Source of the DNA: Flaccisagitta enflata
Taxonomy: Eukaryota
DNA length: 64,000 nucleotides
Assembly (NCBI GenBank): GCA_965153355.1
Contig: OZ231126.1
Location: 44,268,001 to 44,332,000, forward strand
Direction: 5' to 3'
This document shows positions 21,610 to 39,974 of this stretch, piece by piece (positions within the stretch are counted from its first letter, which is position 1; every line of letters begins with the position of its first letter). The notes beneath the pieces were generated by a model, which saw only the letters and a program-made list of their open reading frames with translations, made no database searches and was not told the DNA's origin. The translations under genes and the position numbers were made by a program.

Positions 21610-21802
21610 TCGGGTGTGTCATATTACAAAAGGTTTTTTGATCGCTTCATCAACATCAGGGGGCATGGGGGGACGAATTCTAAGACACTTAGCGTTTTTA
21701 CTTTTTTAAATTTCATACATCTTCCGTTTTTTTAGCAACGAAAACTGTTTTCGCTGTTTATATATTCCTCCCTGGTTTACGTCATCGATGACTTCGTTTT
21801 CG
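21610..21802 (+). repeat. Left terminal inverted repeat of the giant transposon
   Basis: Reverse complement of 39782-39974. Confidence 0.93.
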
Positions 21803-22241
21803 GACGTCATCTCTAGTGTATGATCATCGATCGTTTTATGGGTTCATCTCGGTGCCCAAATATGTTTCGAAATGATTCCGCTTAAGATAGTGACAAGAGC
21901 AATGCTAGTTGTGTATCAGCGAATTGATACAAGAATGCATAGGCTGTAAATGCTCCCGCAATAACAACGCTGCGTTATGCAAATTAAGTATTCAAACAGA
22001 AAATTCCGAAGATGTCGCCCACGAACTGGTGAAGCCTGTTCGTACACGTTATACGATGAATTGAGCTAAATCGAGTCATGCTTAATATAAAGACGGTCAA
22101 ATTTACCTTTATGAATTGAGGCGCCTCTCTGGAATGGTACGAAGCAGGATGAAGCAGGATGAACACGAAGTGAGGGGAAGATGATCGAAGACAACAGTTA
22201 CATGTTATTTGACGACATTTGATGCCTCCGCGGAAGTATCG

Positions 22242-22480
22242 TCTCTCTCTCTCTCTCTCTCTCTCTCTCTCTCTCTCTCTCTCTCTCTCTCTCTCTCTCT
22301 CTCTCTCTCTCTCTCTCTCTCTCTCTCTCTCCGTCTCTCTCTCTCTCTCTCTCTCTCTCTCTCTCTCTCGTCTCTCTATCTCTCCGTCTCTCTCTCTCTC
22401 TCTCTCTCTCTCTCTCTCTCTCTCTCTCTCTCTCTCTCTCTCTCTCTCTCTCTCTCTCTCTCTCTCTCTCTCTCTCTCTC
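22242..22480. repeat. (TC)n microsatellite; similar (AG)n/(AC)n tracts at ~9348-9465, 10660-10765, 13038-13348, 24348-24408, 29190-29425, 30493-30632, 38187-38272, 50205-50340 and 53040-53140
   Basis: Directly visible dinucleotide runs. Confidence 0.95.
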
Positions 22481-22687
22481 GCTGTTCCTTTCGCGTTCTC
22501 GTACACCATGCACAAGTCAGGGCTCTGAGACGTGTAGATGTATTGTTTCATACCCGTTCCACGTTTTTTAGGCGCAGAAATATCAAGTACGGAATCAAAA
22601 ATTTTACCTCTATCGCCACTCGTAAGACAACGTTCGAGTATACTAGCAATTAGACTCCGCTTGAACGGATATTTACCTATTACAGTC

Positions 22688-23391
22688 TTTGGGCAGTGGC
22701 CCGGGCGGGGCCGATGACCAAGGATTCCACAGAGGGCAATTTTCTCCGATTTCCGTATGTCTGCCCTCTGAAACCTCAAACCAGGCTTACCAAGCTCAAA
22801 ATCAAGCCTATATAAGCCCGAATTAGGCCTCTCAGACCTCTAATCAGGGCTCTCAGATCCAAATTCAGGCCTTCCTGGCCTCAAATTGAGCCACTAAAAC
22901 CTCAAATTAGGCCTTTGAAACCCTAGATTGAACCTCTCAGACCACAAATTAGGCCTCTCAGATCCCAAATCAAGCCTCAGATCCAAAATAAAACCTCTCA
23001 AACCCCGATGCAGGCCTTTTAGACCCCCAGTCAAGCCTCTCAGACCTTAAATCTGGCCTCTCCAGCCAAAAAGCAGGCCTCATTTTTCCTAAATCAGACA
23101 TCTTAACCCCCAAAATCAGCTTCTCAAACCTTCATTTGTCCAAGTCCCCTTCACCAAGACACAAATCACTTTTCTCAGCTCTGGCCTCAAATTAAGCCCC
23201 TAAGACCCTAAATCTGGCATCTCAGACCTCAATTCAGACCCATTGGTCAACAAACACAAAACGAAGATTGGAGAAAATTGCCCTATGTAGAATCATAAGT
23301 CATCAGCCCTTCCAGGGCCGCTGCCTCTCTCACCATCTTATCCTTATATTACCATAGGGGCATCGGGTACCGCTGACCGCTTTTGCGACTA
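22688..23391. mobile_element. HINE-like family A copy inside the giant transposon
   Basis: Same subterminal IR, 21-bp internal units and GGGTACCGCTGACC..TTTTGCGACT end as 9939-10658. Confidence 0.65.
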
Positions 23392-36700: not shown

Positions 36701-37733
36701 CATGTCTCTGAATAGTGAAGAAAAAGCTTGGAGTAGTAAATAGCTGTTTGAAATGTCTTTTTGAAAGAAAATCGTTTGTCTGTCTGTTTGCCTCACTGTT
36801 TTTGAAAGTGCCGACGCACGTGACTTAGGTCTAATGACCTTGTTTTTAGCATAAGTGTTTTGGGTTAGACTCAGAATGGATGTTTGCTCGGTCAGTTTTG
36901 CTAAATGGAAAACTAGGAGTGATGCGCTTAGTAACTGGTCAGTGAGGGCTCTCAAGGCCCTGTTCCATATTTTTAGTCGCGGACTAGCGACTCTATAAGA
37001 GGCTTTGTCCGTCCGTCGGTTGGTTGGTTGGTTGGTCGGTTGGTCCGTGGTGATCGAGTCGCAAAGTGGGAAAACACGCATTTCAGCCCCTGCCCACCCG
37101 TCCGCGACTGGTATTGGCCGTGTATCCGGCCTTGTTCAGTATAGTGAAGGTTATTGTTCAAGCTATCATGCAACGTCAGGCCTTGTAAGGAGCCACGCAC
37201 AGAGAAGGTCTCAACTGAATAGATTTGTTTGTCTGTTCAGCCGGCTGTCTATACACTATAGGTTGGTTGGTCTGTCAGCTAGAGTTACAAGAAAACACGC
37301 CTGAAATATGATGAGGTTGTGAGCGTTTCTGTGTAAGAGGGAAGGCGGACGATACAATATTGTTACCTATCACCTTGTTACTTTTTTCCCCATTCTAGCT
37401 TTCTCTCTTTATCTATCTTTCACTCTCTCCATCTGTTTTCTTTCCTTTTTGCATGCTTGCATTTTAAGTAACTTACAATGTACGCTCCCAGAATTTCACG
37501 ACGTAAGAGATGGCAGTGTTGGGCGCGATCGAGGCGTCAACGGCGTCAACGTCCGCGTCCTTGAGCTTCTTGAGAACGATCTTCGCGGCATCACGCTTGT
37601 CCATGTCTTCCTTTACATGATAATGGCGGAAGACCATGACCATGTCCCGAACAGTGGGCCGTCGACCTCGCGGGAATTCCTTGATCGGCGCGAGATTGCC
37701 TAAATGAGGCTTCCAAATTGTTTCTTTGGGCAT
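27755..37733 (-). CDS. Intact 13-exon DDE transposase, 810 aa, CxxH (hAT-like) class
   Basis: Manual splicing, all introns GT..AG and all phases consistent. Exons: 37733-37477, 36227-36008, 32638-32075, 31618-31465, 31299-31189, 31019-30953, 30308-30023, 29881-29820, 29638-29435, 29139-29005, 28621-28500, 28098-27956, 27862-27755 (2433 nt, ATG to TGA, no internal stop). Motifs in order: LAIHVDG (D1), SGTG, VFDTTASMTG (D2), LLWIACMHHRLELLL (CxxH), PRDEY, HKARWMA, RHGWSF, VNDPAE (E), C-terminal RKEYPDLKRSSL. This motif set matches my recollection of hATm/'Cc8K15.2-like' transposases; not verified by search. Confidence 0.9.
32939..35745. repeat. Tandem satellite, 18-bp unit CGTTACGACCGACTCTAG (22-bp variants at left end), in transposase intron 2
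   Basis: About 150 head-to-tail units without spacers. The left ~500 bp uses 22-bp units (extra ACCG, CTCGAG instead of CTCTAG). Lies within intron 36007-32639. Confidence 0.97.
36601..37136. mobile_element. Two HINE-like insertions in transposase intron 1
   Basis: 36601-36846 is an inverted relative of 4583-4984; 36970-37136 is nearly identical to 15228-15404. Confidence 0.75.
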
Positions 37734-39053
37734 TTTTAAGTATTCAAGCTGAAAAATTCAAATTGTCAATGAAATCAATGAATAAAAATCATCAAGTACC
37801 TACTCTTACAGTCTTGCTCATTTAGAAATGGAAGTGAAGGCATTAAAGTTAAACCAAACTAAGTATTTCTGTCTCTCTCTCTCTCTGGCCAATAAGTGCG
37901 CCTTGCTTGGTGAACGAAGGTTCTGACTGCACGAATGAATGAATAGATGAGCGAATGAATTTATGAATGAATGAAAAAATGAATGAATAAATTGTGAATA
38001 GGATTGAAGAAAGACATCAGAATTGGCCATTGTGCACATTTCAAACGATTGCGTTACTGACCGACCTAACTACCAACCGACAGACAGAAAGACATGACCT
38101 CTTAATGAAGTGCGAGGACGCACTTAAAAACGGCCGTATTGTGCGCACGGCTTTAACATTTTAGTGACGGACAGACCAGACAACAGACTCTCTCTCTCTC
38201 TCTCTCTCTCTCTCTCTCTCTCTCTCTCTCTCTCTCTCTCTCTCTCTCTCTCTCTCTCTCTCTCTCTCTCTCCTGAGGAAATTCTAGACAATGTATATCT
38301 TCATTACACAGACATCAAAGTGAACCGAAGGTGAACCAAAAAATGGACGGACAAATAGAGAAACCATTATGAAAATACAATATGCATGGATATTGAATAT
38401 AAAGACACTTGAAAATAATAAAACAAGCAACGTAAACGACTAACAATTATGACATCTATAAAGAAACATTTTACCAATCATTGCAAGTTTGCATGGAATA
38501 TTATCTTTTTTCAACATAAATAAACTAAATGTTCTTCCTGAACTAGAACATATCAGGAACAACACTACATTTCTTGACTATGGTCGACGTTGCAAGAAAA
38601 CAGGAGGAGCACGGCCAATAAGATTTTGCTTGTGAGTTGGCAGAGATACTGTAGGAGATGGTCGGGCGTATATCACTTAACGTTTTACGTTTTCCTAAGC
38701 AAGTTGCTATCCCCAACGCTACCCCTGCACCCAACACTACCCCAATAACCAACACCACCCCTAGCCTGAACCAATCCCCTAACTCAGTCAAACCCCTAGC
38801 CTGAACCAATCCCCTAACTCAGTCAAACCCCTTCAACTTAACTAAACCTTGTAAACGAAACTGTTACAGGACAAAAATGTTACGGGACGGACCAACGGAC
38901 CGACCGAAACAGCAAGGTATAGAGTAGCTCGTCCGCGACTAATAATAATATCAGCAGGGTTTTTTTTTCAAAGAAAATATATGCGGATCACGGGAACGGG
39001 ATCGGGAACGGGAACTTGTCAACTTGAAGCGACAAATTTGAAAAGTAGGTGAA

Positions 39054-39263
39054 TCATAGAACTTGTAGAAGATTACAACTAACATCACAGCCCTTAGACA
39101 ATACACAGCCATTTTGTAGACTAGGTAATACGAGAGCGTTCGGCGGTGCCCTTGCCACGATTAGTCCAGCATTGGCACATTGAAGTAACACAGATAGACG
39201 CTGAAAACATTGACGATTAACTGGATCTTTTGGGGAAGGAGAACGCGCGGCTGCGAGTCCCAT
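39054..39263 (-). pseudogene. Possible 3' fragment of an RLE-type (CRE/NeSL-like) non-LTR retrotransposon ORF
   Basis: Translation FQRLSVLLQCANAGLI resembles the C-terminal 'QRLSVxLQRGNA' motif that follows restriction-like endonuclease domains. No RT sequence is visible. Confidence 0.4.
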
Positions 39264-39781
39264 CCACCAAGCGTTTCCAACATCAAAAGAACGAACGTGA
39301 CATTATTTGCGCGCTGAAATGGCGTTCAATTGTTTATATTATTTTTATTTGCCACCTTCTGTTTTTATTTACCACCTGTTTCATGATTTTTTTTCTTCTC
39401 AGAGCTCAGGAGCAGAAGCTTTGGTCAATCCTTACACATGATGGAGCTTTTGTTCACGATCCATATTTGATAGAAAAAAGAACAATCTGCATTGGCATTC
39501 CAGCTAACTCGCAACACCCACCAATGCACTCGCTATTTGTTCTCATGCAATAAAGATGATGCGATGGCAATTGAGCTGAAAATCTATTCACTTTACTTAA
39601 TTTACATATCGCAGCGACACCATTTCTACTCTGCCTAACTGCAAGACGAGTTATTCTGCGTTAATTTTTTCCACTTTATTCATTCTTCCGATCATTTATT
39701 AAGCCGAATGAACTTATAACTTACGCTGGTGTTTAGTTTCCGTCAAAGGAAACTGAAAGCTGAAAGTTTTGAATGCGACAT

Positions 39782-39974
39782 CGAAAACGAAGTCATCGAT
39801 GACGGAAACGAGGGAGGAATATATAAACAGCGAAAACAGTTTTCGTTGCTAAAAAAACGGAAGATGTATGAAATTTAAAAAAATAAAAACGCTAAGTGTC
39901 TTAGAATTCGTCCCCCCATGCCCCCTGATGTTGATGAAGCGATCAAAAAACCTTTTGTAATATGACACAACCGA
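39782..39974 (-). repeat. Right terminal inverted repeat of the giant transposon
   Basis: Reverse complement of 21610-21802; contains TATATAAA (39820-39827) and the palindrome GTCATCGATGAC. Confidence 0.93.

Follow-up and report, generated by a model that had tools for sequence, protein, structure and literature searches.

Positions 21610-39974 of a 64,000-nt stretch of the genome of Flaccisagitta enflata (contig OZ231126.1 of assembly GCA_965153355.1; the whole stretch is referred to here as the window) are bounded by long inverted repeats and enclose a gene for a putative transposase. The locus thus raises the questions of whether the 18-kb unit is one transposon or several, to which superfamily it belongs, and whether it is young and mobile or old and inert. 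The interval is a structurally complete copy of a cut-and-paste (class II) DNA transposon with terminal inverted repeats (TIRs). Very probably it is a single copy of 18,365 bp that inserted into a host tandem repeat and encodes a hAT-like DDE transposase of 810 amino acids, making the element apparently autonomous. The unusual aspect of the locus, and one that the initial annotation did not stress, is that the transposase has no annotated relatives.

Ends of the element and insertion site

The two arms of the element (21610-21802 and 39782-39974, 193 nt each) form the longest inverted repeat of the region, and align without gaps and with 4 mismatches (98% identity), at TIR positions 5, 92, 165 and 170. 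A 30-nt motif from the end of the TIR occurs exactly twice in the window, once at each end of the element, and had 0 matches in 100 shuffles. Besides the TIRs, the only inverted match across the gene is a pair of subterminal blocks, each 358 nt from its own end, and this symmetry indicates that the ends of the element are homologous past the 193-nt TIR. No second, inner inverted-repeat pair around the gene was found inside the element. Within the outermost 400 nt of the ends there are 5 instances of the palindromic 8-mer TCATCGAT.

Both arms are abutted externally by the sequence GTGGTAGGT, a target-site duplication (TSD) of 9 bp whose two copies (21601-21609 and 39975-39983) are identical. 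If the terminal T/A of the TIRs is counted, the literal direct repeat is 11 nt (aGTGGTAGGTt); the TSD is read as 9 bp because only this length keeps both TIR ends in register, and because it is the sole reading consistent with the uninterrupted copies of the host repeat. The two flanks (39977-40145 on the right and 21318-21485 on the left) share 88% identity, and the left flank, a single 9-mer and the right flank together align to an adjacent repeat unit (21192-21444) with a gapless junction. The single perfect TSD and the exactly rejoining flanks therefore indicate that the unit inserted as one piece.

Uninterrupted copies of the host repeat are also found in two marine-metagenome runs (X2 and X4, as Logan contigs). 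In each run a set of contigs (13 in X2, 12 in X4) matches the right flank beginning at 39975, with ...GGTAGGCTGGTTGG standing before it in place of the TIR. The left flank of this locus reads ...GGTTGGTAGGCTGGTTGA before the 9-mer, and the ...GGTAGGCTGGTTGG contigs differ from it at about 4 of 25 positions; at a repeat depth of 1e4-1e5 these contigs are therefore uninterrupted paralogues and not the orthologous empty allele. Among contigs compared with 35800-41800, and the best-supported of about 2500 loose ends, none could be assigned to an orthologous empty site or to another insertion site. The initial annotation had described 193-bp TIRs with 4 mismatches, a perfect 9-bp TSD and insertion into a repeat whose halves rejoin, and all three descriptions hold: the alignment reproduces the TIRs, both TSD copies were located, and the rejoining is borne out by the gapless junction to the neighbouring unit and by the paralogous copies.

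The transposase gene

The gene occupies the minus strand and comprises 13 exons and 12 introns of 93-3369 nt, all bounded by GT..AG, with a coding sequence of 2433 nt that runs through 810 codons and 0 internal stops from an ATG at 37733 to a stop codon at 27757-27755. The model was obtained by chaining conserved-looking open segments through canonical splice sites, and it recovers the complete spliced open reading frame (ORF) with 12 introns that had been noticed at the outset. A codon model trained on the 3070-codon host ORF of the window ranks the assigned frame first of six in 10 of the 13 exons, and gives every exon a score (-0.21 to +0.21 bits/codon) above that of the best frame of any of the 12 introns (-0.33 to -1.03). 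Two environmental relatives of the protein (P0001 and P0002) run unbroken across the join of exons 3 and 4, and two others (P0005 and P0006) reach as far as the second Asp motif. At least three versions of exon 1 were encountered: that of the window, that of P0027, a predicted protein on an ENA contig (D45N, K51Q), and that of X3, a DNA run from another sample with the same species label (37534 G>T, giving A67D).

The transposase protein and its relatives

Along the predicted protein, the candidate motifs follow in the order HVDG (D357), FDTTASMTG (D425), ACMHH (C454..H457), an adjacent R573-W574 pair, and NDPAEH (E764), which corresponds to a candidate catalytic spacing of D(68)D(339)E. For the relative P0005, AlphaFold predicted from a 26-sequence alignment a structure with a mean predicted local distance difference test score (pLDDT) of 70.5, exceeding 85 over residues 60-140, in which a bundle of three helices leads into beta1-beta2-beta3-alpha1 and the conserved Asp sits on beta1. 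This predicted arrangement corresponds to a DNA-binding domain followed by the first part of an RNase H-like fold.

Relatives of this protein are few and short. An exhaustive phmmer search of 1.84 billion representative proteins returned 23 matches at E<=1e-3, among which 6 reach E<=1e-10; all 23 are 63-261 amino acids in length. Ten relatives that were looked up lie on contigs of 555-1313 bp (ENA, JGI, Logan) and are unnamed or labelled "hypothetical protein". No Pfam family scored above cut-off in 8 ORF pieces, 10 relatives, 9 in-frame exons or the exon 12-intron-13 read-through. There was no sign of a zinc finger: exons 1-3 gave no Pfam match of this kind, the protein has no Cys/His cluster (12 Cys in 810 amino acids, with 2 Cys in the densest 60-residue window), and no Cys/His-rich stretch was found elsewhere in the element besides microsatellite artefacts. 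Judged by these sequence comparisons, the transposase appears to represent a lineage without a match in Pfam, the PDB or annotated proteins, and otherwise seen as short environmental fragments only.

With the half-domain model of P0005, the top Foldseek matches were COMMD proteins (E 4e-3, TM ~0.2), DDE transposases (ISCth4, TnsB, MuA, IstA) appeared at E 0.2-0.6 only, and VIA-align returned no significant match to a known transposase. No longer relatives were found by word-indexed search with the exon 6 ORF or the 26-sequence profile (8000 candidates scored), which is weak evidence. The family profile gave 148 pattern matches in JGI metagenome contigs and 32 in viral contigs, with 0 confirmed in either set, and the TIR 30-mer had 0 matches in JGI metagenome contigs. 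In a protein-language-model atlas the exon 3 piece fell among unnamed clusters only (scores 0.89-0.92), and P0005 reached at most 0.81; one neighbour of P0005 carrying the hAT-derived DUF4371/PF27073, at 0.80, lies within noise and serves as a lead only. Several sub-threshold matches were set aside. Those to Pfam, all below the curated cut-offs, were PHM7_ext (E 0.05-0.06), TrbE (0.1), COQ9_N (0.046) and PT (0.058) among the pieces, which were attributed to chance, and VLPT, DUF3914, 3H, Cwf_Cwc_15, Importin_rep_6 and SSV1_ORF_D-335 among the relatives. Sequence matches in the PDB to an aldose epimerase (E 1.6), an ABC-transporter binding protein (0.099) and small heat-shock proteins were likewise dismissed as chance.

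Comparison with known superfamilies

The element was compared with known superfamilies through descriptions in the searched literature. In that literature the nearest descriptions are those of hATm and Rehavkus, and no account of this protein family was found. Like hAT elements such as Hermes, Ac and Buster, the element belongs to the cut-and-paste transposons with TIRs and carries a single gene for a transposase. The essential residues of the hAT transposase Hermes are D180, D248, R318, W319 and E572, at spacings of 68 and 324 (PMC6027215). The residues assigned here by motif follow the same order of D, D, R-W and E, with a D-D distance of 68 in both proteins and a D-E distance of 339 here against 324 in Hermes (PMC6027215); the CxxH motif of the element is also in order. 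The hATm family is reported to have 8- or 9-bp TSDs and termini of TAGGGTG...CACCCTA (PMC6004678), which the termini of the element, TCGGGTG...CAACCGA, match at 6 and 5 of 7 positions.

BED-type zinc fingers are usual in hAT elements, and neither these nor other zinc fingers are present in the transposase model of the element. The TIRs of hAT elements are usually short, unlike the 193-nt TIRs found here, which accompany a gene with 12 introns. The TSD of hAT elements is 4-8 bp (PMC6027215), usually 8 bp, and the 9 bp of this element falls within the hATm range only (PMC6004678). The terminal consensus of hAT is (T/C)A(A/G)NG (PMC6027215), whereas the ends of the element read TCGGG on the left and TCGGT on the right, with C at position 2 where the consensus has A. 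Neither the C-terminal hAT dimerisation domain (PF05699) nor another hAT Pfam model matched exons 10-13 taken singly or the exon 12-intron-13 read-through (E<=10), although the domain would be split among exons and the read-through contains 31 intron-coded residues.

P elements create 8-bp TSDs, and Kolobok elements insert with a TTAA TSD; Kolobok was set aside as a candidate on the 9-bp TSD of the element, GTGGTAGGT. Yuan and Wessler reportedly described the CxxH motif in 2011 as common to several superfamilies. P element and THAP9 transposases resemble that of the element in being DDE enzymes with a large inserted domain and a [C/D]xxH motif (PMC8230255), with TIRs and a TSD of similar order as further common traits. 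Their D-E distances are shorter, at 228-239 amino acids (D303-E531 in DmTNP and D374-E613 in hTHAP9) against 339 here (PMC8230255), and the exon pieces had no THAP or Tnp_P_element Pfam matches. Because the order and spacing of the DDE motifs are like those of Hermes, and the D-E distance of P-type enzymes is shorter, the architecture of the transposase is hAT-like, and closest to the hAT superfamily. For the superfamily of the element as a whole, a relationship to hAT is the best guess, though at no better than about even odds, a separate lineage is unlikely, and membership in Mutator/Rehavkus is a little more unlikely again.

Nested repeats and the size of the element

The "giant" size of the element is due to nested dispersed repeats, satellites and microsatellites in the introns and non-coding parts, and not to cargo: no cargo gene was found, and Pfam recognised no family in 10 ORFs taken from the non-coding regions. 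The initial description of a giant element stands as to the 18,365 bp and the nested repeats and satellite within them, but a "giant" family that ferries other repeats is an overstatement of what is a repeat load, no second gene having been found. The block of a microsatellite and a 21-nt minisatellite on the gene-3′ side lies some 0.6-1.6 kb inside the left TIR. The dispersed repeat nested in intron 1 has at least 15 partial copies in the window, at 74-92% identity, and may be SINE-like (resembling a short interspersed element). Rfam and tRNA scans of the window returned nothing, and the nested repeats show no recognisable origin from tRNA or RNA.

Copies of the same dispersed repeat outside the element lie at about 4582-4984, 7912-8590, 15226-15403, 43305-43872, 46567-46645 and 52261-52339, in both orientations. 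The repeat is modular, with an internally duplicated head module (positions 1-65 and 368-448) and a separate tail module. The 21-nt minisatellite family is represented inside the element (22759-23134) and again at 43940-44296, about 4 kb beyond its right end.

Copies, transcripts and age

The coding region is present in seven sequencing runs from three studies, with no RNA run listed among them. The internal unique sequence of the element is present in three DNA runs (X2, X3 and X4) other than the probable source, and in it there are 0 differences from the window in X2 (4 contigs, 1356 nt) and in X4 (5 contigs, 1472 nt), and about 27 differences in some 2500 nt in X3. A 17/18/35-nt tandem array at 38757-38832 is about 14-18 nt shorter in X2, X3 and X4 (one contig each) than in the window. 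The shorter array at 38761-38783 is common to all three runs, and this length variant sets the copy in the window apart from those sampled elsewhere.

Read depth inside the element exceeds that of the one unique stretch of the flank (41026-41427): about 4-10 against 2.6 and 0 in X2, about 55-370 against 10 and 0.2 in X3, and about 1-6 against 0 and 0 in X4. This excess is a hint of more than one copy, although neither holes nor summed depths are proof of anything. The bin at 39619-39819, which reaches into the right TIR, is covered some 10 times (X2) to 25 times (X3) more deeply than the inner unique parts. In addition, 118 RNA reads match the inner part of the right TIR (39820-39886) with three fixed differences (G>C at 39859, 39860 and 39866) and share a break at 39886 into unrelated sequence, implying that a TIR-derived fragment is transcribed elsewhere in the genome.

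The initial annotation inferred recent insertion from the near-identical TIRs, and this argument does not hold. The 2% divergence of the TIRs is no insertion clock because TIRs, unlike long terminal repeats, are not regenerated at insertion, and the 9-bp TSD is too short to date the event. Youth is suggested by the unbroken ORF, by splice sites that are intact and by near-identical sequence in different samples; the load of old nested repeats speaks for age, unless these repeats travel with the element.

Alternative interpretations

Several points weigh against a single autonomous hAT-like element. The link between transposase and TIRs comes from a single copy, and the three catalytic residues were chosen by motif and spacing, not by alignment to a solved transposase. 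The joins of exon 1 to exon 2 and of exon 2 to exon 3 were placed by splice logic alone, DNA depth at exon 2 is about 50 times that of neighbouring element sequence, as would be expected of a repeat-like or low-complexity sequence, and exons 6-13 lack homolog support because the relatives are too short. Neither AATAAA nor ATTAAA occurs within 358 nt past the stop codon, and a polyA RNA run (X11, of which about 6% was read) has a depth of 0 over 37006-38814, exon 1 included. In one alternative the transposase would be a very divergent DDE enzyme of the MULE (Mutator-like element) or Rehavkus kind and the element a member of the Mutator superfamily, with the 9-bp TSD, long TIRs and minisatellites as traits of the family, but this is improbable. 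MULEs typically have a D-E spacing much shorter than 339 amino acids. The protein of the element has a long insertion with the R-W pair between the second Asp and the candidate Glu, as in Hermes (PMC6027215). In favour of Mutator, the 9-bp TSD and 193-bp TIRs are within the limits described for MULEs (TSDs of 8-11 bp, TIRs of 14-500 bp), and they match Rehavkus, an animal group with a 9-bp TSD, 26-400-bp TIRs, one ORF, a PHD finger and a minisatellite before the 3′ TIR (PMC6446971). The element shares with Rehavkus internal minisatellite arrays as well, its 21-nt array (22821-23062) lying about 1.2 kb inside the gene-3′ TIR, but the large 18/22-nt arrays are mid-element, and the largest satellite is intronic, at a distance of 4-7 kb from the nearer end, and not beside a TIR. 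The PHD finger has no counterpart in the gene model, and a Cys/His-rich stretch that could correspond to it or to another zinc finger is missing from the rest of the element. The MULE domain (PF10551) did not match exons 4-7, P0005 or P0006, which span both Asp motifs, or the other pieces; PHD and SWIM domains were found neither in the exons nor in the relatives, and non-coding ORFs gave no PHD Pfam match. The combination of hAT-like catalysis and Mutator-like ends that was proposed initially has support in the motif order, which looks hAT-like, and in the ends, which are within the Mutator range, but it is not unprecedented, given the published descriptions of hATm (PMC6004678) and Rehavkus (PMC6446971). 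It is also unlikely, though somewhat less so than a Mutator affiliation, that the element is the first full-length, still-functional member of a superfamily-level DDE lineage, sister of hAT in the CxxH group (hAT, Mutator, P, Kolobok), with a zinc-finger-less transposase bearing a helix-turn-helix (HTH), 9-bp TSDs and TIRs of about 200 bp, and currently mobile in a marine organism whose populations hold near-identical copies.

The integrity of the unit and its age invite two further explanations. Two inverted copies of an unrelated short TIR element might have mobilised, or might simply bracket, an 18-kb stretch that contains the transposase gene of another element, in which case the gene would not encode the cognate enzyme of these ends. 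Such a composite would fit with the examination of only one copy, with the existence of TIR-related sequence on its own elsewhere, as shown by the RNA reads that diverge at 39886, and with the excess depth of the bin at the right TIR. It is nevertheless most improbable: no other inverted-repeat pair brackets the gene, so that a nested autonomous element must have lost its ends, a single perfect TSD flanks the whole unit with exactly rejoining flanks, and the ends are homologous past the TIR at symmetric positions, as would be the case for one element. More serious, if still doubtful, is the view that the copy is old, fixed, and inactive or domesticated, its ORF being kept by chance or by host selection while nested repeats accumulated after insertion. 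The four fragments of an old dispersed repeat (74-92% identity) and the long microsatellites and satellites inside the element are in keeping with this, as are the 2% difference between the TIRs, the lack of RNA reads on exon 1 in the portion of X11 that was read, and the failure to observe an orthologous empty site. Against it stand the intactness of all 12 splice-site pairs and 810 codons, the perfect TSD, the near-identical internal sequence in independent samples, the three or more variants of exon 1, and the hint of more than one copy from the depths of X2 and X3.

Proposed transposition pathway and implications

For a single hAT-like element, transposition would involve an 810-aa DDE (RNase H-like) transposase with an N-terminal region lacking a zinc finger, a predicted three-helix bundle, and a putative catalytic domain comprising D357-D425-C454xxH457-R573-W574-E764. 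The transposase would bind the 193-bp TIRs and the subterminal motifs, and DDE-catalysed cleavage would excise the element; the most likely variant of this step would be a hAT-type hairpin on the flanking DNA, favoured because of the CxxH and RW motifs. Reinsertion would proceed by a 9-bp staggered cut, and at the present locus would have taken place in a unit of a high-copy host tandem repeat, with duplication of 9 bp of target.

If the protein does represent a distinct DDE lineage, the short list of eukaryotic cut-and-paste superfamilies would gain a branch, and the element would provide a complete reference copy, with ends, TSD and exons, for anonymous marine-metagenome fragments. As an intact element with defined ends it is a candidate for transposition assays. 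The locus also carries two cautions for annotation: a "giant" transposon of 18 kb may turn out to be an ordinary one of about 5-6 kb that nested repeats have swollen, and the identity of TIRs should not be taken as a measure of insertion age.

Features of the element and neighbouring sequences

Table 1. Coordinates of the transposon, its gene, its nested repeats and its flanks in the window.
Feature	Position	Strand	Basis
Left flank, tandem units of the host repeat that took the insertion	21097-21609		Self-comparison
Left TSD copy, GTGGTAGGT	21601-21609		Sequence; gapless flank rejoining; paralogous uninterrupted sites
Complete element, 18,365 bp, gene on minus strand	21610-39974	-	TIRs, TSD, spliced ORF
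Left TIR, 193 nt, begins TCGGGTG	21610-21802	+	Inverted-repeat alignment
Subterminal block, partner of inverted pair (23 nt, 91%)	21968-21990	+	
(TC)119 microsatellite (22242-22480), then repeat block including 21-nt minisatellite (22821-23062)	22242-23415		
Exon 13, stop codon 27757-27755	27755-27862	-	Splice chain
Exon 12, candidate third catalytic residue (NDPAEH, E764)	27956-28098	-	Splice chain
Exon 11	28500-28621	-	Splice chain
Exon 10	29005-29139	-	Splice chain
(AG)64(CA)56 microsatellites, intron 9	29185-29425		
Exon 9, R573-W574 motif region	29435-29638	-	Splice chain
Exon 8, 62 nt, gives Arg codon split ahead of Trp574	29820-29881	-	Splice chain
Exon 7	30023-30308	-	Splice chain; codon model
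Nested repeat fragment and (GT)n(GA)n microsatellites, intron 6	30493-30872		
Exon 6, CxxH motif (ACMHH, C454..H457)	30953-31019	-	Splice chain
Exon 5, second catalytic Asp candidate (FDTTASMTG, D425)	31189-31299	-	Motif also in P0005/P0006
Exon 4, first catalytic Asp candidate (HVDG, D357), strands beta1-beta3	31465-31618	-	Join of exons 3 and 4 read through in P0001/P0002
Exon 3, low-complexity region, then EW.PP motif and three-helix (HTH-like) DNA-binding region	32075-32638	-	15 relatives aligned; predicted fold
Satellite block, intron 2: 22-nt units (~32828-33700), 18-nt units (32971-35745, ~149 copies)	32828-35748		
Exon 2, acidic/basic linker, least certain exon, alternative donor 35977	36008-36227	-	Splice logic; no homolog support
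Very high-copy modular dispersed repeat, nested 536-bp copy, intron 1, without own TIRs	36601-37136		Boundaries: loose ends, three DNA runs
Exon 1, ATG at 37733, donor GTAAGT	37477-37733	-	83/85 identical on ENA contig (P0027)
Subterminal block, partner of inverted pair (23 nt, 91%)	39594-39616	-	
Right TIR, 193 nt, reverse complement begins TCGGTTG	39782-39974	-	Inverted-repeat alignment
Right TSD copy	39975-39983		Sequence; flank rejoining; paralogous uninterrupted sites
Right flank, same host repeat continuing	39984-40374		Self-comparison; depth 1e4-1e5 in DNA runs
Further fragments of the intron-1 dispersed repeat	30728-30872 (intron 6), 24107-24276 and 38891-38947 (non-coding)		
Long microsatellites inside the element	22242-22480, 29185-29425, 30494-30632, 38188-38272		

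Beyond the right flank, two further repeats (40825-41025 and 41428-41628) have a huge DNA depth, up to about 5e6 summed in X3, and are the most RNA-covered places of 35800-41800 (about 107 + 109 and 19 + 20 reads deep). Reads at 40896-40904 diverge into simple repeats of the GGAC/GGACG type. The two stretches represent an abundant, transcribed dispersed repeat. Short-unit satellites and long dinucleotide microsatellites are unusually abundant across the window as a whole, with further satellite arrays at 5989-7245, 44617-46109 and 50919-51778 built from 8/12-nt, 10/11/14-nt and 10-nt-based units.

The host ORF that served to train the codon model is a single open frame of 3070 codons on the minus strand (54789-63998) that runs off the end of the window. 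It is rich in Ser/Gln/Ala runs, contains C2H2 zinc fingers at residues ~1413-1463 (zf-C2H2_4, E 3e-12), and probably represents a single giant exon of a zinc-finger gene of the host.

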